Positions 24,089 to 53,407 of a DNA stretch of 64,000 nucleotides are shown here, one piece after another. Below the pieces are notes generated by a model that made no database searches, had not been told where the DNA came from, and worked only from the letters and a program-made list of their open reading frames with translations. Source of the stretch: a virus. A program made the position numbers and the translations under genes. The DNA is taken from IMG/VR virus record IMGVR_UViG_3300045988_132703. One strand, given 5' to 3'. How positions within the stretch are numbered: position 1 is the stretch's first letter; each line of letters begins with the position of its first letter.

Positions 24089-24109
24089 AAAGCTTATAAA
24101 CTGGCAAAA

Positions 24110-24140
24110 AGAGCCTAGAATAAAATCTAGGCTCTTTTTC
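24110..24140 (+). terminator. rho-independent terminator fused to cassette promoter
   Basis: AGAGCCTAG-aataaaat-CTAGGCTCT then TTTTC. Confidence 0.7.
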
Positions 24141-24142
24141 TA

Positions 24143-24171
24143 TTGACTTTTTAATGACCTTATGATATAAT
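24143..24171 (+). promoter_or_regulatory. early cassette promoter
   Basis: TTGACT-17-TATAAT, TGa extension, then ATTTATAGAAAA leader. Confidence 0.7.
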
Positions 24172-24204
24172 ATTTATAGAAAATAAAGAAAGGAAGAATG
24201 AGTA

Positions 24205-24513
24205 TTGGGTTTTGATTTTATTATCTACGATTATGACAATCAAGAGACTGTTTGTCATGTTGAAGGGTACGATATATCCGATATTAAAGAAATTTTTATT
24301 TGGATTATAACTGGTGATGAAACTGGCAGTCTAACAATGCAAGATGGTACCGTTTATAATTTTGACGCTTCGGATAATCGTTTTGAAGATTTTAATGATG
24401 GCTCCTATACTGTTGAGGGAAAGGAAAACATCGAGAAATGGCTTAATTTTCAGCCGACTGAAAAGGAGTCTCATCTCACTTTTTCTTATGTGCGCCAAGA
24501 GAAATGGGGTTAA
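24205..24513 (+). CDS. hypothetical protein
   Basis: Track ORF; TTG start 8 nt after AGGAAG of the cassette leader. Confidence 0.55.
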   Translation: MGFDFIIYDYDNQETVCHVEGYDISDIKEIFIWIITGDETGSLTMQDGTVYNFDASDNRFEDFNDGSYTVEGKENIEKWLNFQPTEKESHLTFSYVRQEKWG

Positions 24514-24722
24514 TGTTTATGTGGCTTGTTCGTTATAAAGCAAAAGCAGATACTAGCTGGGCGACTTTCATTTCCAATGCTGCTTTGATGAATTTTGCTG
24601 CACAGGATTTTATTGATTACTGGTTTAAACAGCATGATAAAACTCCGCCGCAGATTAAAGATTTCCACGAAGCCCGTAAAGTTATGTGGAATGAAGGTAT
24701 AGATTTTTATATCACCTTGTGA
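24504..24722 (+). CDS. hypothetical protein
   Basis: Track ORF. Confidence 0.5.
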   Translation: MGLMFMWLVRYKAKADTSWATFISNAALMNFAAQDFIDYWFKQHDKTPPQIKDFHEARKVMWNEGIDFYITL

Positions 24723-24737
24723 GAAAGGAAGATTATT

Positions 24738-25187
24738 TTGATTGTTTCTGAGATTGAAATGAATATGAAAGCCGCGCTGAAACAGGATAGAATGGAAGAT
24801 AAAAATGATTATTCTTATCTTTTGTCTCGCTTTCGCGCGAAAGAAGTTGAGCTTCGCCGTGAATTGACTGATGATGAAGCCATTGACGTCATTCGCAAGG
24901 AAGTCAAACAGATGCAGAAAGACTATAATGCAATGTCTGGTGATTTGCTCAACACCCATTATGCTAAGGGCCTGAAGCGTCAGATTGACCTTTATTCAAT
25001 CTATTTGCCTAAAATGATGTCTTATGATGAGGTTTTGGATTATTTGCGCGGAATGGATACTGAGTGCATGCTCCCGACTGCTTTTGGCGCAGCTATGAAA
25101 GCCGTTCGTGCGGAAATTGGTACTAAAGCAGATGGCAAGACTATCTCTCAGGCGTTGAAAAATTATATGGCTCAGGAGAAAAATTAA
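24738..25187 (+). CDS. GatB/YqeY-domain protein
   Basis: Length and pattern match YqeY: N-terminal ..MKAALK.., ELTDDEAIDVIRKEVKQ, YLPK..S.DEV, G.KADGKTISQALK. Confidence 0.65.
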   Translation: MIVSEIEMNMKAALKQDRMEDKNDYSYLLSRFRAKEVELRRELTDDEAIDVIRKEVKQMQKDYNAMSGDLLNTHYAKGLKRQIDLYSIYLPKMMSYDEVLDYLRGMDTECMLPTAFGAAMKAVRAEIGTKADGKTISQALKNYMAQEKN

Positions 25188-25559
25188 ATGAAGATTTTTA
25201 GAATGAAACGTGGAGAAGGCAAAACCTCTCGTTTAATTGAGGAGAGTGCAAATTCTGGCGTTCCTATTTTTGCTATTAACGATCATCGACGACACGTTTT
25301 GATGGAAAAGGCAAATGTGATGGGTTACAAAATTCCTTCGCCCGTTACTTTCGAGGACTTGTCGACTGCAACGAATGTACATTTTGATAGAATTATTGTT
25401 GACGATGCAGAGTATACTTTGCCTGCTATTCTCAATTATTTTCTCGGTATTACAATTGCAGCTGAAGCATTTTCCACCAATACTCTTGAAGATAGATTAA
25501 TTGACTTCAGAACGATTTTATGTGATAATATTTATAGAAAATCAAGAAAGGATATTTGA
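25188..25559 (+). CDS. small P-loop-like protein (tentative)
   Basis: RGEGKTSRLI (Walker-A-like) and RIIVDDAEY (Walker-B-like). Confidence 0.45.
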   Translation: MKIFRMKRGEGKTSRLIEESANSGVPIFAINDHRRHVLMEKANVMGYKIPSPVTFEDLSTATNVHFDRIIVDDAEYTLPAILNYFLGITIAAEAFSTNTLEDRLIDFRTILCDNIYRKSRKDI

Positions 25560-25562
25560 ATT

Positions 25563-26093
25563 ATGATTAAGTTTATTCCTGCTGTTTCTCGTTATACTGC
25601 TAAGTCCAAGGACGATTATGTTTATGAGAAGCCAAGTTTTTCATATTTTATTGATCGAGATAAGACCGGTTGTATCAATGGTCGGCTGTACCATGGCGTT
25701 GTAGTAGCTAAGCTGAGTGGTGGTGCTCGCGACTTGGCAAATATCTGGACTAAGCGTGACGCTTTCAAGATTCGTGAGCTAGAGGATATTGCTTCTCTGC
25801 TTCATGTTAATTCCGATCTTGGTTCTGCTTATCTTGAGTTTGAAGGCAAGGCTTACTGTTCGGTTGATGATAAGTGGGACGAGGATGAGGGTATGAAGAT
25901 TGCTCGTCGCAAGGCTTGGACTCAGTATTATCATGCTCTGGCGAATTACACTTATGACTATCAGAAGCGTGTCGCCGCGCTGTATGAGCAGATTACTAAG
26001 TATGCTGATTTCGCTGCAAAGCGTAGTCACGAGCTGGATATGGAGAATACCGAAGTCCAGAAGATGATTGAGGAAATGTCGGGAACTGTTTAA
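25563..26093 (+). CDS. hypothetical protein
   Basis: Track ORF. Confidence 0.6.
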   Translation: MIKFIPAVSRYTAKSKDDYVYEKPSFSYFIDRDKTGCINGRLYHGVVVAKLSGGARDLANIWTKRDAFKIRELEDIASLLHVNSDLGSAYLEFEGKAYCSVDDKWDEDEGMKIARRKAWTQYYHALANYTYDYQKRVAALYEQITKYADFAAKRSHELDMENTEVQKMIEEMSGTV

Positions 26094-26122
26094 TTGACTT
26101 TTTTTAAAAATCGTGATATAAT
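26094..26122 (+). promoter_or_regulatory. early cassette promoter (tRNA operon)
   Basis: TTGACT-17-TATAAT, TGa extension. Confidence 0.7.
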
Positions 26123-26204
26123 ATTTATAGAGTTTGGGAATTGATTCCTACTCTTTTTATACATACCTCTTTCTTTTAGGGAGAAGCAATTCTCCCTTTA
26201 ATAT

Positions 26205-26288
26205 GCGACTGTGGCCCAGTGGACAAAGGCGGGTGCCTGCAAAGTACTTAATTTTTTATCGTTGGTTCAAATCCAACCAGTCGCTCCA
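26205..26288 (+). tRNA. tRNA-Cys (GCA), unusual 12-nt AT-rich variable region
   Basis: Acceptor GCGACTG/CAGTCGC; anticodon arm GGTGC-CTGCAAA-GTACT (two G.U); T arm GTTGG-TTCAAAT-CCAAC; encoded CCA. Confidence 0.7.
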
Positions 26289-26409
26289 GAACGGAGTTCC
26301 CTACTAGATTCCCAATGGGAATTGAACTTCACGGTTTGGTTGAGTTAGTCCGTCGTCCTCGGTATTGAGTAGACAATCAAGAGGGAAAGATACGAAAACT
26401 CTTTATTAT

Positions 26410-26485
26410 GCGCGAGTAGTCGAATGGCATAGACACTACGCTAAGGACGTAGGATTTGTGGGTTCAAATCCCACCTTGCGCACCA
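26410..26485 (+). tRNA. class I tRNA, anticodon AAG by canonical numbering (identity uncertain)
   Basis: Acceptor GCGCGAG/CTTGCGC, A73, CCA; anticodon arm CTACG-CTAAGGA-CGTAG; T arm GTGGG-TTCAAAT-CCCAC; 5-nt variable loop. Confidence 0.65.
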
Positions 26486-26503
26486 ATAGAAAGGAAAGTT
26501 GCT

Positions 26504-26734
26504 ATGGGCAAATTAAAAATGACCAAGATAGTTTATGGTCGGGCAATGGTTGGAACTGATGCTTATAAAAAGAATTTATCTAGTAAGCGTTCAAAGTGTA
26601 ATGACCAGAAGAGAAAACGAAACTATCGTTCAGCCACAATCAAAACCAATCTGACTTGGGAACAGAAATTGATTCGATGGTTTGAAAAAGTTGAGAAATG
26701 GTTTTTAGATTATTTTGAAAGGTTTTTCGATTGA
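26504..26734 (+). CDS. hypothetical basic protein
   Basis: ATG 26504 after GAAAGGAAAG; upstream part of track ORF 26456-26734 overlaps a tRNA. Confidence 0.5.
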   Translation: MGKLKMTKIVYGRAMVGTDAYKKNLSSKRSKCNDQKRKRNYRSATIKTNLTWEQKLIRWFEKVEKWFLDYFERFFD

Positions 26735-27024
26735 TGAAAATTTTGACTGCACCAGTTATTGATTATGGAGTTCTTGAGGACGAGCTAGTTGACGCTGGTA
26801 TTCTCAAGAGAGAAGATGTTGAAGAAGATTATTCATACATTCTCGGTTTGCTTTTTGCAGATAATTGGAGTTACGATTGTTATTTGAAACTTTATCTCAA
26901 TGACAAGCCTATTCCAAAGAATCTTGACATAAGTGCGACTGTTTATCTGAAAAAGTGCAATGAGATTTATGCTTATTTGCGCGAGAAGGCTCCAGGTTAT
27001 CCGTTCATTTTGATTGAAACTTAA
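26731..27024 (+). CDS. hypothetical protein
   Basis: Track ORF; overlapping start. Confidence 0.55.
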   Translation: MMKILTAPVIDYGVLEDELVDAGILKREDVEEDYSYILGLLFADNWSYDCYLKLYLNDKPIPKNLDISATVYLKKCNEIYAYLREKAPGYPFILIET

Positions 27025-27037
27025 AGAAAGGATTAAA

Positions 27038-27448
27038 ATGAGTAAGAAGAAAAAGAATACTCCTGTAAGTGATTGGGTCTATGACGACTTAATGGAATTT
27101 TACGAGTTTTGCTTTGGCGGCACCCACGTTTTTCGTTCAAACAAAGCTAAAAAGTACCTTTTTGAGATTCTTACTCACGATTCTAATTGGACTGTTGAAA
27201 ATGTTCATAATGAATATTATGTTCTTTATCACAATCCAGTTTATCAACCTCGTGCGAAAATTCATATTCAAGCAAAAGATACTAATTTGATTTGGCTTTT
27301 GTGGATTGCATATACGCATGATTTCTACAAGTATAACAAACTTCCTTTTGAAAAAGGAAAAGGCAAAGACTATTGGCGTTTCGTTGAAGATTTTAAACGT
27401 TATCTTACTTATAAAGGTCTTCATTGGACAGAAGATGACTTTCAATGA
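27038..27448 (+). CDS. hypothetical protein
   Basis: ATG 27038 after AAAGGA; track ORF 27014-27448. Confidence 0.55.
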   Translation: MSKKKKNTPVSDWVYDDLMEFYEFCFGGTHVFRSNKAKKYLFEILTHDSNWTVENVHNEYYVLYHNPVYQPRAKIHIQAKDTNLIWLLWIAYTHDFYKYNKLPFEKGKGKDYWRFVEDFKRYLTYKGLHWTEDDFQ

Positions 27449-27449
27449 T

Positions 27450-27478
27450 TTGACTTTTGATAGATAATATGCTATAAT
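27450..27478 (+). promoter_or_regulatory. early cassette promoter
   Basis: TTGACT-17-TATAAT, TGc extension. Confidence 0.7.
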
Positions 27479-27484
27479 ATTTAT

Positions 27485-27635
27485 AGAAAATGAGATTTAT
27501 TCGTAGATAAGAATTAAAAATCGCTAAAGACAATAATGTTGCTCTAATGTGGGAACGTGAAGGTTACGGTATATCCGATACTGTTAAACGAAATCCCTAT
27601 GAGCTTGCGTGAGATTGAAACTGCTCACCGAATGA
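27485..27635 (+). ncRNA. candidate promoter-driven non-coding transcript
   Basis: Full cassette promoter 27450-27478 is followed by only 6- to 20-codon ORFs until the next cassette. Confidence 0.3.
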
Positions 27636-27636
27636 A

Positions 27637-27665
27637 TTGACTTTTTATGATTTCTATGATATAAT
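27637..27665 (+). promoter_or_regulatory. early cassette promoter
   Basis: TTGACT-17-TATAAT, TGa extension. Confidence 0.7.
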
Positions 27666-27671
27666 ATTTAT

Positions 27672-27853
27672 AGAAAATGAAAGACAGAAGCAGCAAATAC
27701 TTCTAACAACTTGAACTTAAAATTCAAATATTGGTAAGAAGCTGTCTTGATGTGGGTTGAAATGAGATTCTAAGACGATTTCTGCAAACTTTTAATGTTT
27801 TGATTGAATTATTAGATGATAAAAACGAAAAAGTCGTCTTGATTTTTTATTAT
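27672..27853 (+). ncRNA. candidate leader or small RNA upstream of tRNA-Asn
   Basis: Cassette promoter 27637-27665, no ORF over 9 codons; paired segments AGACAG/CTGTCT and AAGACGA/TCGTCTT. Confidence 0.3.
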
Positions 27854-27928
27854 GGATGGTTCGTACAACGGTTAGTACAAGAGACTGTTAATCTCCTAAT
27901 GGGGTTTCGACTACCTCACCGTCCGCCA
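27854..27928 (+). tRNA. tRNA-Asn (GTT)
   Basis: Acceptor GGATGGT/ACCGTCC; D arm GTAC-AACGGTTA-GTAC; loop CTGTTAA; T arm GGGGT-TTCGACT-ACCTC; CCA. Confidence 0.8.
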
Positions 27929-27963
27929 AAAGCGATAACAGAACGCTTCTTAATATCCCATTG

Positions 27964-28027
27964 CCAATAGGGGAGCATTGAGTAGCTATCAATGAGATTA
28001 AGGTGCCTCCACACCGGCCTTATATTT
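27964..28027 (+). repeat. conserved structured leader upstream of GIY-YIG gene, copy 1
   Basis: CCAATAGGGGAGCATTGAgTaGCtATCAATGAGATTAAGGTgCcTCC..ACCGGCCTTATATTT; nested stems GGAG/CTCC and CATTGA/TCAATG. Confidence 0.7.
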
Positions 28028-28043
28028 AATTATTCTGGAGGGA

Positions 28044-28961
28044 ATGGTTATGAAAGTTATTTGCGGGATTTATAAAATTACTAATCAAGTTAATGGTAAA
28101 TGTTACATTGGACAGAGCGTAAATATCGCTCGTCGATGGAGAGACCATAAAAAGACAAGTTCTGATGCAAGCTATAATGCTTATGATAGTGTGTTGCATA
28201 AAGCATTTAGAAAATATGGAATAGAAAATTTTTCTTTTGAAGTATTAGAAGAATGTTCTCAAGAAAGTTTAAATGCTAAAGAAATTTATTGGATAAATTA
28301 TTTTAATTCAGATGATTCTTAGAGAGGATATAATTTAACTCCTGGTGGAGATAATGTTGGTTAGAAATGTCGAAAATTAACTGACGAGCAGCTTTAGGAA
28401 TTAAAGCGTCTTTTAAAAACTACATTAATATCTCAAACTGATTTAGCAAAGTAGTTTAATATTAGCCAAATGGCAGTTAGTGATATTAATAGAGGAATAA
28501 GTTATCCAGATTTAAATGAAGATTATCCTTTAAGAGATTCTAATGCAATTCGAGGTTGGAATTTGCATCCAGAGAAGAACGGATTAAAAACAGAATCAAA
28601 AGTTGATAAATCTAATAAGTCTAGTAAATCTGAAGAGTTTATTAAAAGTAAAGATAAAGATAAACCTTTTCCAAAAGTAAAAATTAAAAATATAAAAATT
28701 TGTCCTGTTTGTGGAAAGGAATACGATAGTAAAGCAAAAACTTGTTCTGTTAAATGCGGAAGAATTCGTGTTAAAAAAGTTAAAATTGTTCCTAAACGGA
28801 GTGCTTTAAAGTACTTAATTCGCAATTACTCGTTCGAATGGATTGGTCGTTAGTTTGGTGTAACTGGAAATGCAATAAAGAAATATTGTGATAAATTTGA
28901 TTTACCAAGAACTAAAAAAGAAATTAATTCTTACTCGAATGAAGAATGGAAAAAGATTTAA
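28044..28961 (+). CDS. GIY-YIG homing endonuclease (Seg/I-TevI-like) with Zn-ribbon and HTH tail
   Basis: CGIYKITNQVNGKCYIGQS..RWRDHK, GYNLTPGG; 5 in-frame TAG (28320, 28362, 28395, 28452, 28851) join track ORFs 28044-28322 and 28470-28853; TAA 28959. Confidence 0.8.
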
Positions 28962-28985
28962 AATTTGCCGGCTTGCCGGCTTTAT

Positions 28986-29060
28986 GCATCTGTAGTTCAA
29001 TGATAGAATAACAAACTTTTAATTTGTATGATGCCAGTTTGACTCTGACCAGATGCACCA
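28986..29060 (+). tRNA. tRNA-Lys (TTT)
   Basis: Acceptor GCATCTG/CAGATGC; anticodon arm ACAAA-CTTTTAA-TTTGT; T loop TTTGACT; CCA. Confidence 0.75.
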
Positions 29061-29121
29061 TTAGCTCGTCTATCATGTGTAGAAAGAGTCTCTGAAACCG
29101 TTTATACGGTTTCTATTTTAT

Positions 29122-29207
29122 CCCTCATTAGACCATAAGGATTGGGGCTGGACTGTAAATCCAGTGTGTTTTACGCCGGGATGGTTCGATACCATCATGA
29201 GGGACCA
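29122..29207 (+). tRNA. tRNA-Tyr (GTA), class II
   Basis: Acceptor CCCTCAT/ATGAGGG; anticodon arm CTGGA-CTGTAAA-TCCAG; long variable arm; T arm GATGG-TTCGATA-CCATC; CCA. Confidence 0.85.
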
Positions 29208-29230
29208 TTTATTTTAAGAAAGGATATATT

Positions 29231-29515
29231 ATGGACTTTTTTGTTGGAAATTTTGCTGACTGGTTCAATAGTTATGCTAGGAATAAGTTATTTCGTCTTT
29301 GGTATAAGGAGGATGAAAAACTTGGTCTGGATGATGGCTATGATGGAGTTTGTCAGTATGTTTATCTGCGACAAGCGATCAATCTTGGTAACGATTGGTT
29401 GATTGGTTATGCTGTATTTGATGAACGAGAAAAAGATAATATGTATCCTAGTTTGAATTGGGCTAGATTGAGTGAAATTGATTTGGCCTGGTACAAAGAT
29501 GATGAGGAAAAGTAA
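29231..29515 (+). CDS. hypothetical protein
   Basis: Track ORF between tRNA-Tyr and tRNA-Asp. Confidence 0.55.
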   Translation: MDFFVGNFADWFNSYARNKLFRLWYKEDEKLGLDDGYDGVCQYVYLRQAINLGNDWLIGYAVFDEREKDNMYPSLNWARLSEIDLAWYKDDEEK

Positions 29516-29530
29516 TTTTCCTCTTTATAA

Positions 29531-29614
29531 TGTCCTGTAGCGCAAATGGATAGAGCGCCACCCTGTCACGGTGGAGGTATATTATTGCCGGTTCGAACCC
29601 GGTCAGGACAGCCA
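29531..29614 (+). tRNA. tRNA-Asp (GTC), unusual 12-nt AT-rich variable region
   Basis: Acceptor TGTCCTG/CAGGACA; anticodon arm CCACC-CTGTCAC-GGTGG; T arm GCCGG-TTCGAAC-CCGGT; CCA. Confidence 0.75.
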
Positions 29615-29904
29615 GATGCAATTCGGAAGGATTGCGAGTCTTGCGCCTAGGAGATAAGGCGTCAAATTGGATGATTTGTGACCTAAGCAGGTCGTTAAAA
29701 GGCTCAGTTTGGTAAAGACTGTAAAAAATTACCAGCCGAGAGAGGATGGATTTGAGGTAAACTACCACCGGCGCTTAGCGATATGTGGCTTAGTCATTTG
29801 TATTCGGCTTAATACAAAGAAAACGAAAGTAACCTTGAACGCATAGGAGTTCTAAAACTCTATGGACTAGACGTGAGGGATAGTCTGAAAACTCCCTCTT
29901 ATAT
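29615..29904 (+). ncRNA. structured non-coding spacer between tRNA-Asp and tRNA-Gly
   Basis: 290 nt with no plausible ORF; many local hairpins (GCGCC/GGCGT, GACC/GGTC, TGGTAA/TTACCA, GAGGG/CCCTC). Confidence 0.3.
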
Positions 29905-29979
29905 GTGCGAGTGGTATAACGACAATTATCCTTGCCTTCCAAGCAAGGGACGAGGGTTTAACTCCCTTCTCGCACACCA
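29905..29979 (+). tRNA. tRNA-Gly (TCC)
   Basis: Acceptor GTGCGAG/CTCGCAC; anticodon arm CTTGC-CTTCCAA-GCAAG; T arm GAGGG-TTTAACT-CCCTT; CCA; D loop lacks GG. Confidence 0.65.
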
Positions 29980-30464
29980 TTAATCAAAGTTTCTAATTAG
30001 GTTCAATCCTCCCAGAGGATTATAGCTGAAGTGGAGCAATGCCTGGGCTAGACACGCATTGTACGGTACACTGAAACACCAAATAGACCGCGGTATAATA
30101 GGTGTTATAATGCCGAATACTTAATTAAAGTAAAAGAACACCAATCTTTGATTAAATTGGGCTGGAGTTTATCTCCTTGGTCCACCAATCCAGTGGAATT
30201 TCTACTGGCGGCTTTATGACAGGCACGTAAGAAATCTGTCCCTCTGAATAGATACTTGCATAACAGCAAACTTTTCTAGTTGGAAGAATAAAAGTATTAC
30301 TTGATAATACTTTGATCGCTCGCGCATTCAAACTAGAGGTATCTAGTAATAAAAGAGGTCTGGAATGAATGTGTGAGTGTAGATTCTCAGTAATTACAGA
30401 ATGAGGATCGGTTCTTCACCGCCTAAGAGTGAACCCTCGCGGGAGTGGGTATCTCCCGTTTCAT
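29980..30464 (+). ncRNA. structured non-coding region downstream of tRNA-Gly
   Basis: 485 nt with no plausible ORF; composition less AT-rich than flanks; hairpins e.g. AATCCTC-CCA-GAGGATT. Confidence 0.3.
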
Positions 30465-30537
30465 GTCTCCTGAGCTGGGAACTCACGGATGTTTCATAAG
30501 CAACCTATGCACAGTTCAATTCTGTGAGGAGACACCA
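30465..30537 (+). tRNA. tRNA-like element, possible CAT anticodon (non-canonical D region)
   Basis: Acceptor GTCTCCT/AGGAGAC, A73, CCA; T arm CACAG-TTCAATT-CTGTG; candidate anticodon arm GATGT-TTCATAA-GCAAC; D arm does not fold canonically. Confidence 0.35.
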
Positions 30538-30587
30538 TTTACAGTTATAGCGGTGGCTGTAACAGAAATTTTTATCGTTTTAACAAA

Positions 30588-30617
30588 GGCCTCGGAGTAA
30601 AATCTGAGGTCTTTTTT
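30588..30617 (+). terminator. terminator fused to cassette promoter
   Basis: GGCCTCGGA-gtaaaa-TCTGAGGTC then TTTTTT. Confidence 0.7.
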
Positions 30618-34995: not shown

Positions 34996-35024
34996 TTGAC
35001 TTTTCTTCAAATCTATGCTATAAT
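34996..35024 (+). promoter_or_regulatory. early cassette promoter (tRNA/HNH unit)
   Basis: TTGACT-17-TATAAT, TGc extension. Confidence 0.7.
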
Positions 35025-35031
35025 ATTTATA

Positions 35032-35506
35032 GAAAGTTAAGGAAAGATTACTTAATTTTTACGACAGTTTTGTTGGCAGACACTTCACTGAGTAAAAATG
35101 TGAGCTGCTAGGTTTACGAGAGGGGTCACAGGCTACCAGAAATGGAGCTGAACCGAGCCAAACCTCCTAACGCAGAAGTTGCGTTCATAAATTACTTGCA
35201 ATCTTAGCTTAAAGTGACAGGGCGCTAAAAGATTGTTTTGCCACTCTTAATTGAGTGGTAAGGTTCACTATAATTGATACCTCCACGCGGTGTGAACTGG
35301 ACAATCTGATGAACTTGGAAGTCAGATTGACGAAAATCAATAGACATGAAAGACGAAATGAATACAAGCTCTCTTTCGTCGGTTAAATTGCACCAGCTTC
35401 GATGGTAGAATGAATTAACGTTCTGATAATTGTCGGCGCAATGCGCATCTACGGCACGGGTAAAGACGTCCCCTGCAAAAGCAATTAGACCATGTCGTTT
35501 TATTAT
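35032..35506 (+). ncRNA. promoter-driven non-coding region upstream of tRNA-Glu-like gene
   Basis: Starts at cassette promoter 34996-35024; no + strand ORF; only a - strand ORF (35225-35632) that overlaps the tRNA-like gene. Confidence 0.3.
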
Positions 35507-35583
35507 GACCCCTTCGTCTAAAGGTGAGGATAGGAGATTTTCAATCTCCCGATGCATTGGGTTCAAGTCCCGCAGGGGGGCCA
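35507..35583 (+). tRNA. tRNA-Glu (TTC)-like, irregular acceptor end
   Basis: GACCCCTTCGTCTAAAGG.. resembles bacterial tRNA-Glu 5' half; anticodon arm GGAGA-TTTTCAA-TCTCC; T loop TTCAAGT; only 5 of 7 acceptor pairs. Confidence 0.5.
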
Positions 35584-35606
35584 CCACTTTTAATTGAGGA
35601 TAACTT

Positions 35607-36344
35607 ATGGATTCTTTGGTAGATAAATACACTTAGCAAGAGTTAGAATAGATAGTTTAGCTATCTACATCTTATAAAGATTTAGCTCAAAAGTTAGGTT
35701 ATACTGCATTTTCCAGTGATTTAAAATATTTTTTAGAAAATAAATTTTCTGATTTTGATACTTCGCATTTTCAAACAAGAGTTTCAAAAGAAAAGCGGGT
35801 AGAAAGAACAGAGGAAAATGTTTTTATAGAAGATTCTACAGCTTCTCAGCAAACTTTAAGAAGATGGTATCGAAAAGGTAATTATACTCCTTATTAGTGT
35901 TCTATTTGCCATCTTGAACCAATCTGGCAAGGTAAGCCATTGACTTTAATCCTTGACCATATTAATGGCATCAATAATGACGACAGATTAGAAAATCTTC
36001 GATGGGTTTGCCCAAATTGTAACCAATAGCTTGAAACAACTAATGGTAAGAATCGAAAAAATTATTCTAAAAAATATTATTGCATTGATTGTGGAAAAGA
36101 ACTTTCTGGGGATTTCCAAAGATGTAAAAGTTGCGCTGGGAAAATTAGAATTGTTCCTGTTACAGAAATGAGTGTTTCAAGAGATGAATTGAAATCTTTA
36201 ATCCGAAATAAAACTTTTGTTGAGATAGGAAAAGATTTTGGAGTTTCCGATAATGCTGTTCGAAAATGGTGTGATAAGTTAAATTTGCCAAGAACCAAAT
36301 CTTTAATTAAAACCTATTCTGATGAAGAATGGGATAAGCTATGA
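35607..36344 (+). CDS. HNH homing endonuclease with Zn-ribbon and HTH tail
   Basis: LDHINGINNDDRLENLRWVCPNCN; GAGGA then ATG 35607; 5 in-frame TAG (35634, 35649, 35658, 35895, 36027); no standard-code ORF in the track. Confidence 0.75.
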
Positions 36345-36358
36345 AAGTAGCTTTATTT

Positions 36359-36435
36359 ACTCCGATAGTTTAATTGGTGAAAATTTTCGACTGATAATCG
36401 AAAGAGTGCCTGTTCGATTCAGGCTCGGAGTACCA
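36359..36435 (+). tRNA. tRNA-Ile (GAT)
   Basis: Acceptor ACTCCGA/TCGGAGT; anticodon arm TTCGA-CTGATAA-TCGAA; T arm GCCTG-TTCGATT-CAGGC; CCA. Confidence 0.8.
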
Positions 36436-36568
36436 GTTGCGTGACAGTCGTAGAACTCCTATCGGCTGTCTAAAGAACTAGGGTAAGGCTTATGAGTGGA
36501 GTTCGCTCATAAGACGCGCGAGAAAACGTTGCCCAGAGTTTTGCTTCAAAGTCACTCGCGCATTATAG
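36436..36568 (+). ncRNA. structured spacer between tRNA-Ile and the class II tRNA
   Basis: Stems GACAG/CTGTC, CTTATGAG/CTCATAAG, GCGCGAG/CTCGCGC. Confidence 0.3.
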
Positions 36569-36660
36569 CGGCCACTGGAAGAAGCGGTTAAATTCGCCTG
36601 GCCCTCAACCAGGAGTTCTCGTAAGAGATATTGCCAGTTCAAATCTGGCGTGGTCGACCA
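36569..36660 (+). tRNA. class II tRNA with non-canonical anticodon loop CCCTCAA (CTC by numbering; Leu-CAA if the U-turn is shifted)
   Basis: Acceptor CGGCCAC/GTGGTCG, A73, CCA; 3-bp D stem; anticodon stem CCTGG/CCAGG; variable arm TCTC-GTAA-GAGA; T arm GCCAG-TTCAAAT-CTGGC. Confidence 0.6.
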
Positions 36661-36842
36661 AAGTATTGATACCTTCAAGCCTCAAGAAACAGTTTAATAG
36701 AATACTAGTTGCCTATTGAATTAAAGTATTGAGAAACTATAAATCAAAAGATATGTTGTGGAACGGGAATGATACTAACCGGAAAGCGTAAATCGTATTA
36801 GAGAAAAATGGTCTGGAACTCTTTAAATTATCGGACTACCGT

Positions 36843-36928
36843 GCCGGAGTCGTATAGTGGTCGATTACAACGGTTTTGTAAGCCGTCAGCATATGCTCGC
36901 GGGAGTCCGAATCTCCCCTCCGGCTCCA
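36843..36928 (+). tRNA. tRNA-Thr (TGT) with 14-nt variable arm
   Basis: Acceptor GCCGGAG/CTCCGGC; anticodon arm ACGGT-TTTGTAA-GCCGT; variable CAGCATATGCTCGC; T arm GGGAG-TCCGAAT-CTCCC; CCA. Confidence 0.6.
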
Positions 36929-36932
36929 TTAT

Positions 36933-37007
36933 GCGTTTGTAGTTCAATGGAAGAATCGCAGACTCTTAATCTGTCAGATGCAGGTTCAAGTCCTGTCAAA
37001 CGCACCA
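36933..37007 (+). tRNA. tRNA-Lys (CTT)
   Basis: Acceptor GCGTTTG/CAAACGC; anticodon arm GCAGA-CTCTTAA-TCTGT; T arm GCAGG-TTCAAGT-CCTGT; CCA. Confidence 0.8.
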
Positions 37008-37135
37008 TTTAAAGACCATCACAGCATCTGAAATTGGCTTATAACCCGTTGATTCCAGTTCGAATCTGGTGGTTCTATCTTAAAAAGAGGAACTTAGCTC
37101 AATGGTAGAGCAGCGTATTGTTGGTCTTGTTTTAT

Positions 37136-37212
37136 GCGCTCATGGCTCAATTGGAAAGAGTACTCGGCTACGAACCGAGAGATTAAGAGTTCAAGTCTCT
37201 TTGAGCGTACCA
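37136..37212 (+). tRNA. tRNA-Arg (ACG)
   Basis: Acceptor GCGCTCA/TGAGCGT; anticodon arm CTCGG-CTACGAA-CCGAG; T arm AAGAG-TTCAAGT-CTCTT; CCA. Confidence 0.85.
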
Positions 37213-37286
37213 CTTGTAATTTCTACGAATCTTATACAAATCTCCTTGTCGTTCGCGGCTCGACGCTAATAAAGCCGCACTCCTAT

Positions 37287-37363
37287 GCGGCTGTAATTCA
37301 GTTGGATAGAATATCGGACTTCTAATCCGAAAGTCAAGAGTTTGAGTCTCTTCAGCCGCCCCA
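37287..37363 (+). tRNA. tRNA-Arg (TCT)
   Basis: Acceptor GCGGCTG/CAGCCGC; anticodon arm TCGGA-CTTCTAA-TCCGA; T arm AAGAG-TTTGAGT-CTCTT; CCA. Confidence 0.85.
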
Positions 37364-37427
37364 ATAGGGGAGCATTGATTCGCGATCAATGAGATTAAGG
37401 TACTCCTAATACCGGCCTTATATTTTA
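37361..37427 (+). repeat. conserved structured leader upstream of GIY-YIG gene, copy 2
   Basis: Same about 64-nt sequence as 27964-28027 with loop differences; begins at the CCA of tRNA-Arg(TCT). Confidence 0.7.
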
Positions 37428-37450
37428 TTTATCATTTAGGAGTGATAGAT

Positions 37451-38296
37451 ATGCCTATTTGTGGTATTTATAAAATTACTAATTAGATCAATGGGAAATG
37501 TTATATTGGACAAAGTATAAACATTAAACAAAGATGGAGAGCGCATAAAACAAAAGCCTTTAGTCCCTCTAATTCATAGTATGAATGTCCTTTATATAGA
37601 GCCATTCGAAAATATGGCTTAGAGAATTTTTCTTTTGAGGTTTTAGAAGAATGCCCAGCAGAAGAATTGAATCAAAAAGAATAGCAGAATGTTTCTTTCT
37701 TTTAGTCTAATAATCCATCTTTTGGTTATAACTTAACTCCAGGCGGCGATGCCTAGGGAGATAAATGTAGAAAATTAACTGAATTACAAGTTAAAGAAGT
37801 TCAAGATTTGCTACTTTTTAGTTTATTATCTCAAGAAGAAATAAGTAAAAAATTTGGAGTTACTCAAAGAACTATCAGTTCAATAAATACTGGAGAATGT
37901 TATTTTGATCCAAAAATAAATTACCCAATCCGTTCTCACCAAGAAGGAGCGAGAGTCTCCTTTTTGAAAAAGGGACAAGAAATTTCTCCAGACAATTATA
38001 TAACAAAATTATCTGATTCTTTATTTAAAAAATGTGAATATTGTGGTAAAAATATTTAGCATTCTGACAATAAACGCTTTTGTAGTTAGAAGTGCGCACA
38101 AATGGCAAGTCGAATTGTAGAAAGACCAAGTAGAGAAATTTTAAAAAGTGAAATTCGAGAGTAGCCTTTTACGTCTTTAGGTAAAAAATATAGTGTCTCA
38201 GATAATGCAGTTAGGCGCTGGTGTAAAACTTATAATTTACCATTTAAAAAATCAGAAATTAAATCCTATTCAGATGAGCAATGGGATAAAATATAA
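37451..38296 (+). CDS. GIY-YIG homing endonuclease with Zn-ribbon and HTH tail
   Basis: CGIYKITN[TAG]INGKCYIGQS..RWRAHK, GYNLTPGG; 8 in-frame TAG; track ORF 37808-38059 is an internal piece; TAA 38294. Confidence 0.75.
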
Positions 38297-38332
38297 ATTC
38301 TAAGTTTCTGGCTTTGATAAAGCCAGATTTTA

Positions 38333-38408
38333 TGCGCGGATAGTTCAATTGGATAGAACACGTTCCTCCTAAGAATGAAATGTGGTTTCAAGTACCGCTC
38401 GGCGTACC
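38333..38408 (+). tRNA. tRNA-Arg (CCT)
   Basis: Acceptor GCGCGGA/TCGGCGT (one G/G mismatch); anticodon arm CGTTC-CTCCTAA-GAATG; T arm GTGGT-TTCAAGT-ACCGC; CCA. Confidence 0.7.
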
Positions 38409-38447
38409 ACGATTAACTAATAAGTGTCTCCTTTCTTTTCTCATCTT

Positions 38448-38801: not shown

Positions 38802-39137
38802 ATGAAGATAATGAAACCTATTAAATGGAGTGGTGATAATTTTCTTGAAGCTTTTGATAGCGGCTATAAATTTTCAGAATTTGAGCTATCTGAGCTTGCT
38901 TATGAAAATAGTATTGAAACTACCTATGGAGAGAATGAACGTTGGGTTCGACCCGTAACAACGATTATAGAATTTAATGGTCGTTATTTTCAAATTGATT
39001 GGTGTGAAGGATTGACAGAAATACAGCCTAATGAATTTTTTGACTAGCCGTTTGAAGTAAAAAAGGAATCGCATGAAGAGACTATTACTGTTACTGTAAC
39101 TAATTGGATTCCTCTGGAGAAGGATAAAAATAATTAA
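38802..39137 (+). CDS. hypothetical protein (TAG read-through extension)
   Basis: Track ORF ends at TAG 39045; frame stays open for 29 more codons (PFEVKKESHEETITVTVTNWIPLEKDKNN) to TAA 39135. Confidence 0.5.
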
Positions 39138-47860: not shown

Positions 47861-47886
47861 GCTGGGTAGTAATACCCAGCTTTTTC
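47861..47886 (+). terminator. terminator fused to cassette promoter
   Basis: GCTGGGTA-gtaa-TACCCAGC then TTTTTC. Confidence 0.7.
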
Positions 47887-47893
47887 TATTATA

Positions 47894-47922
47894 TTGACAA
47901 ATGAATAAAAGTATGATATAAT
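47894..47922 (+). promoter_or_regulatory. early cassette promoter
   Basis: TTGACA-17-TATAAT, TGa extension. Confidence 0.7.
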
Positions 47923-47970: not shown

Positions 47971-48126
47971 ATGGTTTTTGCAAGTGTTCTTTTGATTGCG
48001 GCATTGATTATGAATGTACTTGCATTTGCAGTTTATGGTTTTTTATGGTTTAATTTTATTGTTTGTATTGTAGATGCAATTTTGTTAATTGTAAATTTTG
48101 TATTCTTTTTCTTTAGGGAAAAATAA
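47971..48126 (+). CDS. small membrane protein (51 aa)
   Basis: MVFASVLLIAALIMNVLAFAVYGFLWFNFIVCIVDAILLIVNFVFFFF; below the track cut-off. Confidence 0.45.
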   Translation: MVFASVLLIAALIMNVLAFAVYGFLWFNFIVCIVDAILLIVNFVFFFFREK

Positions 48127-48563
48127 TGGCGCAAAAGAATTTCTACCCGAAAAAAATTTTATATAGCTAGAAGCCACGAAAACATATTGTTTTCAACGAA
48201 AAAGATGGCTCTCTTGGAGAACAACGGATTCGAAAAATCCTTACGCAAAATCTATGTAATTTTGTCGAATAGAAGACTTTCGACGGATTGAAAGATTAGA
48301 AGCCGCTTAGATTTGATTTTTCGTTAGAGTTTAATGGTAAGGTTGTATGCTTAATTGAGTATCAAGGAGAACAGCATTTTAAAGCTGTTGAACATTTCGG
48401 TGGAATGGAAGGATTTTAGTTGCGCCAAAAGCATGATGCGATGAAATTTCAATATTGCCAATAGCATAAGATTCCGTTGTTTTATATAAGATATGATGAA
48501 GATTTAGATTAGCGGCTCGCGCAAATAATTCAATGGTATACAGTTTTTAAATGGATGGTGTAA
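48126..48563 (+). CDS. PD-(D/E)xK-like endonuclease (probable free-standing homing endonuclease)
   Basis: RFDFSLEFNGKVVCLIEYQGEQHF core; 6 in-frame TAG; no standard-code ORF in the track; TAA 48561. Confidence 0.55.
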
Positions 48564-50482: not shown

Positions 50483-50572
50483 AAAGTTTGATGTTCACGT
50501 TTGGAAAGAGGACTGCGACAGATATGAAACTGATTATTGCAAGAAACAGAAATCTCAGAAAGGAAAATAACA

Positions 50573-50848: not shown

Positions 50849-51165
50849 TGGGTGTTAGAGGAAAGCTGATTGATTTGATTCTGGATGCAAAGAGAACAGA
50901 CCACGAAACAGGAAGCTTTACTGAATATCTTGCAGACTATCTTATCAGCAATGGCGTAACGGTGAAGGAGTGGATTTCGATTAAAGATAGGATGCCGGAA
51001 TATCCAGGGCATTATCTCATATGCACCAGTATCAATTACTGGTATGGCGGGTGCATGGAAATAAATGAAAACCATAAATATTATCCAAACGGTACGCCAG
51101 CTGGTTATGATGGCTCTACAATGAGTGTGATTAATTGTTACTACGATTGGGAAGAGAATTTATGA
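50848..51165 (+). CDS. DUF551-like paralog, C-terminus replaced at the cassette junction
   Basis: N-terminal 60 aa alignable with 49847-50233 (GVTVKEWISIKDRMPE); 3' end runs into the right direct repeat. Confidence 0.55.
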   Translation: MGVRGKLIDLILDAKRTDHETGSFTEYLADYLISNGVTVKEWISIKDRMPEYPGHYLICTSINYWYGGCMEINENHKYYPNGTPAGYDGSTMSVINCYYDWEENL

Positions 51166-51190
51166 TACTTACTTTGCATGGGAGATTTGC
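51149..51190 (+). repeat. direct repeat, right copy
   Basis: GGGAAGAGAATTTATGATACTTACTTTGCATGGGAGATTTGC; about 37 of 43 positions identical to the left copy. Confidence 0.8.
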
Positions 51191-51192
51191 TA

Positions 51193-51375
51193 ATGAATTG
51201 GCTAATTTTGATTGTAGGATATGTAATTATTCTTGGAGTATTTCTTAGCGCGAATGCGAATGCGAAAGCCTATAAAGACGAAGATGATGATGCTCCTTGG
51301 GTAGGAAATATGCTGTTAATGATGATTTTTGAATTGTTGTGGATTATTATTTGGGCCAATGCTTTTGGGATATAA
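51193..51375 (+). CDS. small membrane protein
   Basis: ATG 51193; two hydrophobic helices. Confidence 0.5.
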   Translation: MNWLILIVGYVIILGVFLSANANAKAYKDEDDDAPWVGNMLLMMIFELLWIIIWANAFGI

Positions 51376-51376
51376 A

Positions 51377-51679
51377 ATGAAAAATGGATTAATTCATATT
51401 GACGATTTGCGCGAAATGGATAAAATCGCGGCAAGCATGGATAAAGATTATACTCTTGAAGATTTGATTCAAGCGGTTGAATGCAAAGGAGAGTTTACTC
51501 GTCCGCATTCATTTGTTGTTAGAGCAAAAGCAGAAAAAATATGCTCTGCGCGAGAAAATGAACAGTATCTTGAGTGCGACCATTGTAAGCATAAAGTTGA
51601 TTGGAATAAATGGAACTCTGAATGGAATTATTGTCCATTCTGTGGGTTCCCAATTATTCGATGGACGGAGGAAGATTGA
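51377..51679 (+). CDS. zinc-ribbon protein
   Basis: CDHCKH...CPFCG; ATG 51377. Confidence 0.5.
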   Translation: MKNGLIHIDDLREMDKIAASMDKDYTLEDLIQAVECKGEFTRPHSFVVRAKAEKICSARENEQYLECDHCKHKVDWNKWNSEWNYCPFCGFPIIRWTEED

Positions 51680-51870
51680 TGACTGCTTTAGAAGCTAAAA
51701 GAGCCGCGGACAATTTTAATCAAACTTATTCAAAAGAATGACGGAAAAACAGCAGAGTACTTGAATAAGAAAATTGAGGAAGCTGCTTATCAAGGTAATT
51801 AATTGGGACATTCTCAAAAAGAGCAACCAAAAGAAGAGAAAAAGAAATGGTTTTGGTAGAAAGGTTGATT
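51679..51870 (+). pseudogene. decayed copy of the 51874-53377 paralog family
   Basis: MTALEAKRAADNF.. start resembles 51874 gene (MISAKEAKSFADEV); frame break at A4 run near 51735, in-frame TAA 51800, ends ..KKWFW like the family. Confidence 0.35.
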
Positions 51871-51873
51871 TGA

Positions 51874-52248
51874 ATGATTAGTGCAAAAGAAGCTAAAAGT
51901 TTTGCTGACGAAGTGACCATTGCCGCACGCCAGCGCAAAGAATATCCGATTTTGATTGGTGACATCGAACGAGAGATTACTCGTGCGGCAAAGATGGGTA
52001 GATACTCTATTCATTATTGGTTGACTGATGTTTCTTTTGGTATGATGGAGAGTTCTTTGAATTTGAATGATCCAGTAGTGAGCGCGCAGTTTAATAATAG
52101 ATCGGATTCTTCTTTGTATGCAAAGATTAAAAATGATTTAATTGAAGCTGGTTACGAAGTTGATGAAGATTTTGGTCCTGCTTCGATGTATTACTGGACT
52201 ATTAAGTGGGATAAAGAGGATGATGGTTATGATTTTATTCGGATCTGA
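51874..52248 (+). CDS. paralog family member 1 (..EAGYEV..W)
   Basis: Track ORF; LIEAGYEVDEDFGP..YYWTIKW. Confidence 0.6.
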   Translation: MISAKEAKSFADEVTIAARQRKEYPILIGDIEREITRAAKMGRYSIHYWLTDVSFGMMESSLNLNDPVVSAQFNNRSDSSLYAKIKNDLIEAGYEVDEDFGPASMYYWTIKWDKEDDGYDFIRI

Positions 52249-52525
52249 AGATGCTATTGGAGTTTCTCAACTCAATAGAGAGATTATGGATTTTCTCGCT
52301 ATTGCAGAACCAGCAGTAATGATGAAGATTAAAGAAGCAGCTAATCGTGGAGAGTTTGGCTTTTGGTGGTCGAGTAAGAAGAATAAAAAGGTTGCTGATA
52401 TTCTTTTTTCTGATAAGATAGGTGTTGAACCTGATAGTAAGTTTATGGCAGCTTTGTTCCATTCGTTGAAAGAAGCAGGTTATAAAGTTAAAACTGATTG
52501 TATAGGTGATTTAAATGAATATTGA
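52223..52525 (+). CDS. paralog family member 2
   Basis: LKEAGYKVKTD; start chosen after AAAGAGGA (track ORF 52142-52525). Confidence 0.55.
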   Translation: MVMILFGSEDAIGVSQLNREIMDFLAIAEPAVMMKIKEAANRGEFGFWWSSKKNKKVADILFSDKIGVEPDSKFMAALFHSLKEAGYKVKTDCIGDLNEY

Positions 52526-52811
52526 TGCCACCACTGCGGACAGAATTGCTTATGTAATAAATAATAATTATATTGAAGAATTTTCAGGTGAAGATACCGG
52601 AGAAGCAGTATCAACAATTGATTTTATAATGAAACAAATTATTAAAGCCGCGCTCCATGGGGAATATAGTTTGGAAATTATTTGGACTCGTAATGATAAT
52701 AATGAACAACTAACTCAAGAAGTTGAGGATTACTTAATTTACAAAATGGGTTATAACATTGAAGAACGATTTCCCGATGGTCCTAACGGTAGTATTGTGA
52801 TTAAATGGTAA
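52515..52811 (+). CDS. paralog family member 3
   Basis: YKMGYNIEERF..IVIKW. Confidence 0.55.
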   Translation: MNIDATTADRIAYVINNNYIEEFSGEDTGEAVSTIDFIMKQIIKAALHGEYSLEIIWTRNDNNEQLTQEVEDYLIYKMGYNIEERFPDGPNGSIVIKW

Positions 52812-52829
52812 ATCAAAAGGAGAATTAAT

Positions 52830-53084
52830 ATGTATTTTAGTGCTAAACGAGCAGATTGGTTGAGAGAGAATGGTTACTGTCCTGAAGTAGGTTCTTTCAA
52901 AGAAGCTCAGCGAGTTCTTGATTGGCTGATGGCTGATATTTATGTAGCTGCGATAGCCGGAGATACGAAAATTGAAATGTATTGCCCAGATAAACATTCG
53001 ATTGAAATTGAGGATAAGTTGAAGGATTTGGGGTATGAAGTTGAATATGATGGCGGTGCCGAAGTGCTGAAGGTTCAATGGTGA
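52830..53084 (+). CDS. paralog family member 4
   Basis: LKDLGYEVEYDGGAEVLKVQW. Confidence 0.6.
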   Translation: MYFSAKRADWLRENGYCPEVGSFKEAQRVLDWLMADIYVAAIAGDTKIEMYCPDKHSIEIEDKLKDLGYEVEYDGGAEVLKVQW

Positions 53085-53089
53085 GTTAA

Positions 53090-53377
53090 ATGAAATTTGA
53101 TTGCAGAATTCCTCGTGCTCTTATGATGCCTAGGGTGTCTAATTTCCCCTTTAAAGAAGCTCAAGAAATTTATTGTCAGCAAAGAATCTTGGATGATATA
53201 ATGGAAAGAATTTATGACAATTCTTGCCGTAAAATCGGTTGTGCAAAATTTAAGATGCGTGACGGTAAGACTTTTTCAGTCATTTATAATGAATTGAAAA
53301 GTCTCGGGTATGACGTAGAGTATGAGAAAGAACCGCTTGAAGACGGAGTTTTAGTAAAAATGAAGATAATGTGGTAA
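53090..53377 (+). CDS. paralog family member 5
   Basis: LKSLGYDVEYEKEPLEDGVLVKMKIMW. Confidence 0.6.
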   Translation: MKFDCRIPRALMMPRVSNFPFKEAQEIYCQQRILDDIMERIYDNSCRKIGCAKFKMRDGKTFSVIYNELKSLGYDVEYEKEPLEDGVLVKMKIMW

Positions 53378-53382
53378 CTTCA

Positions 53383-53407
53383 AGAGAGGAAAATCCTCTC
53401 TTTTTTA
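53383..53407 (+). terminator. terminator closing the + strand early region
   Basis: AGAGAGGA-aaa-TCCTCTCT then TTTTT. Confidence 0.65.

Follow-up and report, generated by a model that had tools for sequence, protein, structure and literature searches.

Gut phages in which the stop codon TAG has been recoded to glutamine have reportedly been described by Ivanova (2014), Yutin (2021) and Borges et al. (2021/2022). Their block structure is by now established – an early block compatible with the standard code, a recoded late block, and a suppressor transfer RNA (tRNA) ahead of the recoded genes – and the term 'dual-coded block', which we adopt for the first of these, comes from Mgcod (bioRxiv 10.1101/2022.06.29.495998). 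This text concerns the distribution of in-frame TAG in a 64,000-nucleotide (nt) stretch of viral DNA (IMG/VR record IMGVR_UViG_3300045988_132703), referred to below as the window, where predicted early genes that are nearly free of TAG are interrupted by four nuclease genes dense in it. The window is part of a phage of roughly 175 kb, which resembles these code-15 gut phages in that its structural genes use TAG as a sense codon, the early genes can be read under both codes and, as judged from its close relatives, the suppressor tRNA(CUA) stands just ahead of recoded genes.

For the nuclease genes themselves, the closest precedents are found in the Agate phages and in T4. In the TGA-recoded Agate phages, a group I intron endonuclease lying in an early gene is preferentially recoded, and its in-frame stops have been proposed to block the endonuclease until late (Borges et al. 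2021, bioRxiv 10.1101/2021.08.26.457843); the placing of endonucleases under a recoding gate, which an earlier note on this DNA had put forward as a new observation, is therefore already in the literature. In T4, the endonuclease genes segB (located in the tRNA cluster), I-TevI and mobE have early transcripts and are translated late (PMC2988022; PMC2330249), the delay device being a hairpin over the ribosome-binding site together with an internal late promoter (PMC2988022). The window shares with Agate a homing-type gene in an early region, carrying far more recoded stops than its surroundings, and the same proposed effect; it differs in that the codon is TAG (glutamine) rather than TGA (tryptophan), that free-standing genes occupy tRNA spacers and operons, none being intron-encoded, and that several families are involved (GIY-YIG, HNH and PD-(D/E)XK-like, with LAGLIDADG in relatives) instead of an intron endonuclease. 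With T4 it has in common GIY-YIG and HNH genes between tRNAs or in early operons, predicted co-transcription, a proposed post-transcriptional hold on translation and, as predicted, a hairpin around the ribosome-binding site; T4, however, uses the standard code with its hairpin and late promoter, whereas here we find in-frame TAG, possibly supplemented by a hairpin, and identified no late promoter. Our preferred reading, to which we assign a probability of about 0.6, is that translation of the nuclease genes depends on the suppressor and would hence be delayed or limited. What is added to the published picture is thus the use of TAG rather than TGA, the several free-standing families, a quantified density and turnover, insertion polymorphism, the promoter context and a suppressor unit of predicted early class.

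Genes were called as open reading frames (ORFs) bounded by TAA or TGA, tiled and scored by codon usage; this procedure replaced a greedy longest-ORF calling under code 15, which had produced spurious minus-strand ORFs. With TAG read as sense, the plus-strand ORFs grow from a total of 16,625 to 23,005 amino acids, and the longest from 505 to 1,161. The TAG-bearing (code 15) block at 16-23560 on the plus strand, made up of tail-fibre and collagen-like genes with a few non-structural ones (gene calls and PHROG tail families), contains 53 in-frame TAG in 7,574 codons (7.0 per 1,000), distributed over 20 of its 27 genes; we refer to these genes as late. The TAG-free, 'dual-coded' block at 24205-53377 on the same strand, here labelled early, comprises 51 non-nuclease genes – for a YqeY-like protein, an RNA ligase, a nucleotidyltransferase, a phosphatase, SPFH proteins and many small unknowns, among others – which between 24.1 and 53.4 kb hold one TAG in 6,400 codons (0.16 per 1,000). 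The four nuclease genes within it hold 24 in 976 codons (24.6 per 1,000). By Fisher tests, late and early genes differ at 2e-13, nuclease and early genes at 1e-20, and nuclease and late genes at 2.6e-6.

The lone internal TAG of the non-nuclease early genes, at 39045, falls in a plus-strand ORF of 111 amino acids (38802-39137) whose match to PHROG 14665 crosses it. Other apparent TAGs (26417, 26450, 46216, 46721 and 48797) lie 5' of the likely true starts or overlap tRNA-Leu. No gene requires TAG as its stop: none of the 51 early genes ends in it, and at 39045 and 60109, the two positions where a standard-code ORF would do so, TAA follows 30 and 6 codons further on. Beyond 53.4 kb the genes remain TAG-free on both strands as far as the window's end, the 54-64 kb region resembling the early block in this respect; a second TAG-free region of small genes, with sigma-70 promoters of its own, spans 54603-63893. 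Under the standard code, a lack of in-frame TAG is trivial. What is not trivial is that TAG also goes unused as a terminator while coding for an amino acid in other parts of this genome. The recount after code-15 calling and the enrichment test by module thus bear out the earlier note on most points: every in-frame TAG count it gave was reproduced, 38802-39137 is indeed the only early gene needing read-through, early genes do not approach the TAG density of the others, and TAG is avoided as a terminator. Its figure of about 60 early and middle genes compares with the 51 called here.

Seven relatives were used for comparison, drawn from a clade that the window shares with near-complete IMG/VR contigs (128-179 kb), with most proteins 85-99% identical; most comparisons at a given site draw on the six relatives that cover it. 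The examined contigs of this clade show the same partition, TAG-free early genes being broken up by TAG-rich ORFs, and the early orthologues of six relatives contain 5 TAG in all their aligned codons (roughly 30,000, this total being an estimate). Outside the clade, a megablast search with 24 kb against GenBank phages gave no match, and tblastn returned distant matches only. The G+C content of the window is 38%; GC skew is positive over 1-53.4 kb, where all genes are on the plus strand, and after 54 kb genes occur on both strands.

That TAG stands for glutamine follows from its alternation with CAA and CAG. When late genes are aligned with their orthologues, TAG codons of the window face TAG 139 times, CAA 28 times, CAG 21 times and other codons only 11 times, and the reverse comparison agrees. 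Within the nuclease genes, TAG aligns with the conserved glutamine of the YIGQS motif among paralogues, and four sites of the 28044-28961 gene alternate in place between TAG and CAG or CAA when it is set against orthologues of 91% identity. On this comparative evidence, TAG is a glutamine codon in this phage. As a separate observation on glutamine codons, CAG accounts for 58% of them in early genes, which generally prefer codons ending in G, while CAA makes up 81% in late and 86% in nuclease genes.

All four nuclease genes are on the plus strand. A GIY-YIG homing endonuclease gene with 5 TAG codons lies at 28044-28961 between tRNA-Asn and tRNA-Lys (Pfam GIY-YIG, PF01541, 41 bits against a cut-off of 22.6; PHROG 7168, 'homing endonuclease', 2e-36), and a second, with 8, at 37451-38296 between tRNA-Arg(UCU) and tRNA-Arg(CCU) (PF01541, 36.6 bits against the same cut-off; PHROG 7168, 1e-38). 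Between tRNA-Glu(UUC) and tRNA-Ile, at 35607-36344, is a predicted HNH endonuclease gene with 5 TAG codons, which matches PHROG 10822 ('HNH endonuclease') over its full length at 1e-41; its HNH motif, DHINGINNDDRLENLRWVCPNCN, is visible, and the Pfam matches to HNH_3 (20.2 bits) and HNH (16.7 bits) are both under their cut-offs. The fourth, at 48126-48563, encodes a small predicted PD-(D/E)XK/DUF2726-like nuclease with 6 TAG codons; it matches PHROG 559 (3e-28), 9084 (1e-22) and also 7140, in a range from 3e-28 to 7e-22, and Pfam DUF2726 at 18.4 bits, below the cut-off of 24.7. With no group I intron detected by Rfam, the nuclease genes are taken to be free-standing.

Under the standard code, these frames contain several in-frame stops, and one might read them as decaying pseudogenes whose TAGs are ordinary nonsense mutations. 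This we regard as extremely improbable. Not one of the 976 codons is TAA or TGA, although these two account for 5% of the triplets of this strand, and the chance of such an absence lies between 2e-7 and 6e-4 per gene; moreover, the family matches cross the TAGs at full length, the catalytic motifs are intact and the TAGs stand opposite glutamine codons. Disruption by TAA or TGA, which would have undone the earlier note's interpretation, is thereby refuted.

The three genes in the tRNA clusters are, to judge from synteny, homing-type insertions between tRNA genes. The gap between tRNA-Glu(UUC) and tRNA-Ile measures 3 nt in six relatives, all of which lack the HNH gene, versus 775 nt here; the spacer between tRNA-Arg(UCU) and tRNA-Arg(CCU) is about 50 nt in six relatives, where the second GIY-YIG gene is absent, versus 970 nt here; and the Asn/Lys spacer, 1,057 nt long here, is empty in the relative L041, at 38 nt, and likewise in L035, while an insertion fills it in L036 and L040. 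Other GIY-YIG insertions occur in the relatives in the Cys/Leu, Glu/Thr, Tyr/Asp and Ser/Trp spacers and 3' of tRNA-Gly, and the relatives also carry a gene for a 370-residue PD-(D/E)XK protein with zinc-finger repeats and a LAGLIDADG gene. The inserted nuclease genes of the relatives have 1 to 13 TAG each, and the 16 nuclease genes of the clade as a whole have about 90 TAG between them, over some 4,300 codons.

The label 'early' derives chiefly from the promoters. Regular-expression and consensus scans identified a series of sigma-70 promoters on the plus strand at 24143-47922, 13 by a strict pattern (16 by a looser one), the strict ones starting at 24143, 26094, 27450, 27637, 30619, 32508, 34996, 38483, 39162, 42111, 44542, 46161 and 47894. 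They share a near-identical cassette, TTGACTTTT-N-TATGaTATAAT followed by aTTTATAGAAAATGA, with 17-nt spacing and a TG; by its sequence, the cassette is a consensus host sigma-70 promoter of the extended -10 type. Strict plus-strand matches number 13 at 24.1-47.9 kb versus one at 1-24 kb, a contrast repeated in the relatives. On the minus strand, 54859-62376 has nine strict (12 loose) cassette promoters, and the region 54603-63893 has two more on the plus strand. By analogy with established phage biology, such host-type promoters would drive early expression. The window differs from the described code-15 gut phages on two counts here: the code boundary at about 24 kb involves no strand switch, and the early block is marked by the repeated, near-identical cassette. 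The conserved aTTTATAGAAAATGA after the -10 hexamer suggests, as an aside, a shared 5' untranslated element or a regulator site.

The nuclease genes appear to belong to these early units. One unit would run from the promoter at 27637 through tRNA-Asn to the gene at 28044, and another from the promoter at 34996 through tRNA-Glu, the HNH gene, six tRNAs and the second GIY-YIG gene to a predicted terminator at 38307-38327 (plus strand), just 3' of the latter; between 27637 and 28044, and between 34996 and either 35607 or 37451, no terminator is predicted. As no predicted terminator separates these early-class promoters from the nuclease genes, the genes are most likely transcribed with early RNA, only translation setting them apart. 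The fourth gene lies about 200 nt downstream of a predicted terminator that is followed by a perfect (12/12) sigma-70 promoter (47861-47922, plus strand). The nuclease genes would provide a contrast within operons: predicted to be on the same early transcripts as tRNAs and early genes, they differ from these in TAG content.

The tRNA genes of the window, called with ARAGORN and Rfam, form two plus-strand clusters, one with Cys, Leu, Asn, Lys, Tyr, Asp, Gly and a weak Met (26205-30533; no CUA anticodon) and one with Glu, Ile, Glu, Thr, Lys and three Arg (35508-38409). The suppressor would be encoded elsewhere: in L055 (IMGVR_UViG_3300045988_129985) and L067, a tRNA(CUA) with a cloverleaf fold and the anticodon loop CUCUAAC lies within a tRNA cluster in another part of the genome, which synteny places about 15 kb upstream of the window's start, and its 25-nt anticodon arm recurs exactly in nine IMG/VR contigs, including each of the seven relatives. 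We regard its U1:A72 and G73 as glutamine-like features. In all seven relatives the suppressor has an early-class promoter of its own and a terminator. In L055 it forms a unit (9530-9778) with its own promoter and a strong terminator, as it does in L067; the promoter belongs to the cassette family (TTGACT-17-TATACT, then ATTATAGAA). Six TAG-rich genes without cassette promoters directly follow the unit, and about 0.9 kb upstream of it, in an adjacent promoter-driven tRNA operon of L055, is a GIY-YIG gene with 13 TAG in 223 codons. Several recoded modules are spread over a large genome, as in the Jade, Sapphire, Agate and Lak clades; a suppressor with its own early-class promoter and terminator distinguishes the present clade from the code-15 gut phages.

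A number of tRNA calls were rejected as suppressors. A 'cta' call at 30395-30467 had a poor cloverleaf; a tRNA that only Rfam reported, at 35509-35578, proved to be Glu(UUC); in relatives, the 'tcct', 'cc' and 'ccta' calls correspond to orthologues of Arg(CCU) whose bulged anticodon stem misleads ARAGORN; and weak 'cta' calls in L016-L021 disappeared at the default threshold. Several tRNAs of the window are unusually long, namely Cys (26205-26288) and Asp (29531-29614) with 84 nt each, Glu(CUC) with 92 nt (36569-36660) and Thr with 86 nt (36843-36928). The third gene of the early block (24738-25187) encodes a YqeY-like protein similar to the C-terminal part of GatB (Pfam, 54 bits), which may bear on the formation of Gln-tRNA for the suppressor.

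The mechanism we propose is as follows. A phage tRNA(CUA) encoded outside the window would decode TAG as glutamine. Genes driven by sigma-70 promoters would have to work while the cell still terminates at TAG, and would hence be kept TAG-free and dual-readable, while the tail-fibre block and the nuclease genes could be translated to the end only after charged suppressor has become abundant. Having landed in tRNA spacers and early operons, the nuclease genes would be copied into early RNA, their translation halting at the first TAG until the code switches; their output would then be delayed and probably kept low. TAG would build up in them because their immediate translation is not selected, and the delay may also be useful, as in T4. 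We infer the early transcription of the nuclease units, the timing of the suppressor and any benefit of the delay. Given its early-class promoter, synthesis of the suppressor is expected as soon as infection begins, and any gate would therefore be a delay while the tRNA accumulates against release factor 1 rather than a late-transcription switch. This qualifies the proposition, adopted in the earlier note, that recoding gates late expression: the glutamine meaning of TAG, the promoter-rich TAG-free block and the intact nuclease genes that need TAG decoding speak for it, while the suppressor's promoter turns the late switch into a delay. A timer set by tRNA accumulation would refine the published model.

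Apart from the TAGs, the two GIY-YIG genes have structured 5' leaders, at 27964-28043 and 37361-37450 (plus strand), the latter beginning at the CCA end of tRNA-Arg(UCU). Such leaders, which start at the upstream tRNA's CCA end, are also present in L004, L028, L035, L036, L038 and L039, and they are conserved far more than the encoded proteins (42-51% identical). All eight leader variants are predicted to fold alike, an outer helix (AUAGGG/CCUUAU) enclosing two hairpins, one of which has a CCUCC loop, and 6 of the 16 consensus pairs – all in the two hairpins – stay paired through changes on both sides. In each variant the 3' hairpin, of 8-11 base pairs, presents GGAG (the Shine-Dalgarno sequence) in its loop, and its 3' arm ends at the AUG; its energies range from -6.5 to -9.7 kcal/mol with stems that differ by variant, and whole-leader z-scores against shuffles are not significant. 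The folding suggests leader control of nuclease expression, which we treat as a lead. Comparison of the leaders with intergenic sequence of the TAG-bearing block revealed no common motif, such as a late promoter, and looking for exact 16-mers of the GIY-YIG leader returned largely chance matches and one new copy. One could go further and regard the alternative code as a containment lock on selfish nucleases, TAG saturation and the GIY-YIG leader together forming a two-layer, code-based counterpart of the hairpin and late promoter of T4 that would release the nuclease only after the code switch brought by tRNA(CUA). We consider this unlikely; if true, it would confine these nuclease elements to code-15 genomes.

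Several observations weigh against suppressor-dependent, delayed translation as set out above. The tRNA(CUA) itself was not found in the window, even at permissive ARAGORN thresholds, and in the relatives the suppressor is predicted to be early, so that the delay could be short. The early label depends on promoter consensus and gene content, and the link between promoter class and TAG is imperfect: a lone early-class sigma-70 promoter at 16196-16224 (plus strand), conserved in place in L008-L011, sits inside the TAG-bearing block and precedes the TAG-containing genes 16279-16611 and 16639-19176. The gene at 48126-48563 is fixed, occupying one site in all six covering relatives; the copies are 97-99% identical, and five of the six TAGs are retained. 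It shows no presence/absence polymorphism among them (a longer zinc-finger paralogue is polymorphic, in L001/L005), and the earlier note's description of all four nucleases as homing endonucleases is not supported for this gene. In L065, a clearly recoded contig, a GIY-YIG gene (7992-8702) has no TAG at all, next to neighbours with 10 in 344 and 19 in 1,002 codons.

For codon composition, the closest neutral analogue is the TTG/CTG pair, which likewise involves synonymous T and C at the first position and G at the third. Nuclease genes use TAG, CAA and CAG in the proportion 24:31:5, TTG 12 times versus CTG never (at least 12-fold), and TTA over CTA at a ratio of 10.5. The TTG/CTG ratio is 12:0 in nuclease, 6.1 in late and 3.1 in early genes, compared with TAG/CAG ratios of 4.8, 1.1 and 0.01, respectively. 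TAG is thus least counter-selected in nuclease genes, mildly so in late genes and very strongly in early ones. Because the 4.8 of the nuclease genes falls below the neutral analogue, selection for TAG is not needed to account for it, which tells against our reading too: the TAG load of the nucleases need not reflect selection for gating, a point on which the earlier note's interpretation needs amending. The three tRNA-cluster nuclease genes are the most A-rich at third codon positions, have the lowest G+C there (GC3, 0.21) and show late-like synonymous usage, which fits either translation in a tRNA-supplemented state or AT drift.

These figures lend themselves to an account by permissive drift only, in which weakly selected, poorly expressed and AT-drifting nuclease genes accumulate TAG without any regulatory role beyond dependence on the suppressor. 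The TAG/CAG ratio at or below its neutral analogue and the lowest GC3 of all gene classes are what drift would produce; TAG positions vary among paralogues and turn over between close orthologues; and some nuclease genes have only one or two TAGs, or, in that one case from another lineage, none. Drift leaves unexplained, however, how homing-type genes can afford not to be translatable early on, unless expression at that stage brings no benefit or does harm, which would amount to a weaker form of gating. The retention of five of six TAGs in the 48126 gene across six relatives also counts against it, weakly given the 97-99% identity of the gene, as does the conserved leader around the ribosome-binding site, which suggests active control of the GIY-YIG genes. 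We hold drift alone to be possible, if on balance unlikely. Dose rather than timing might instead be what TAG limits: suppression competes with release factor 1, so that 5-13 TAGs would cut the yield multiplicatively throughout infection and spare the phage genome from a toxic enzyme. A TAG density 3.5 times that of the tail genes, reaching 13 in 223 codons in L055, would suit such an effect; timing alone may separate little if the suppressor is early; and T4 keeps its endonucleases low by several means. Against this, nuclease genes with only one or two TAGs exist, and the TAGs are not clustered at 5' ends, the HNH gene excepted. Limitation of dose alone strikes us as doubtful.

The TAGs could also be a historical signal, the nuclease genes having been imported recently from TAG-rich modules or code-15 phages and having kept the codon usage of their source. 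The presence/absence polymorphism at several tRNA spacers, a codon usage unlike that of neighbouring genes and the related TAG-rich GIY-YIG genes in distant recoded contigs are in keeping with import. Yet TAG and glutamine codons replace one another in place between same-site orthologues, the 48126 gene is resident in six relatives and still has 5-6 TAGs, and, had early translation mattered, TAG should have been purged as in the neighbouring genes (the 5 TAG in roughly 30,000 early codons estimated above). We therefore find history improbable as the explanation, and return to suppressor-dependent translation as the reading we prefer. Under that reading, the window offers a clean, quantifiable case of recoding that would separate translation on arrival from later translation. 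For the annotation of such phages, code-aware calling has to proceed gene by gene, block-wise calling missing recoded islands in a standard-compatible block.

TAG-rich nuclease genes extend beyond the clade. Of 80 IMG/VR loci at which GIY-YIG relatives occur, some 20 contain at least two in-frame TAG and no TAA or TGA. L079 has a 6-TAG gene amid TAG-free genes for GyrB, GyrA and NAD-ligase, L109 a 3-TAG gene between GyrB and GyrA, and L122 a 13-TAG gene (7374-8285) among TAG-free GyrB, GyrA and DnaB genes; the proteins at these three loci are only 25-50% identical to those of the window. The L122 gene is a homologue of the window's 321-1391 (plus strand, 4 TAG), whose protein begins with a hydrophobic helix and continues through a long, charged helical region to a C-terminal GIY-YIG domain, the latter matched in PHROG and Pfam; a further homologue is L109 13926-14894 (7 TAG), and the gene is TAG-rich in every lineage seen. 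The GIY-YIG homologue of the huge phage LR756500 was set aside as uninformative, its locus using the standard code.

A few further features of the window and its relatives deserve mention. The slot occupied here by 38802-39137 is variable: four relatives have in it a TAG-free gene for an RtcB-like RNA ligase (identified by motif inspection only), and two a LAGLIDADG gene with 2 TAG; examples of the slot in relatives are L001 3396-4658 and L002 7829-8608. ORF-free stretches at 35025-35507, 30000-30600 and 37008-37135 lie 3' of early promoters inside the tRNA clusters, and sub-threshold Rfam matches were obtained for a hepatitis delta virus (HDV)-like ribozyme at 35262-35334 (25 bits) and a YrlA Y-RNA at 37027-37139 (24.8 bits). 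In bacteria, RtcB accompanies Y RNA. At the block boundary, relatives carry a reverse transcriptase gene (Pfam RVT_1; L035 6335-7495, with equivalents in L036, L039, L041 and L037) beside an 807-residue tail gene, probably as part of a diversity-generating retroelement; the window lacks it and has a different last tail gene and a G+C-richer 0.6-kb segment at 23.56-24.2 kb. An ORF at 53573-54061 (3 TAG; rich in Lys, Glu, Arg and Gly) is probably no gene. It falls within 53400-54350, a purine-rich, strongly GC-skewed and non-coding stretch with convergent terminators at its flanks, where the plus-strand block meets the minus-strand genes.

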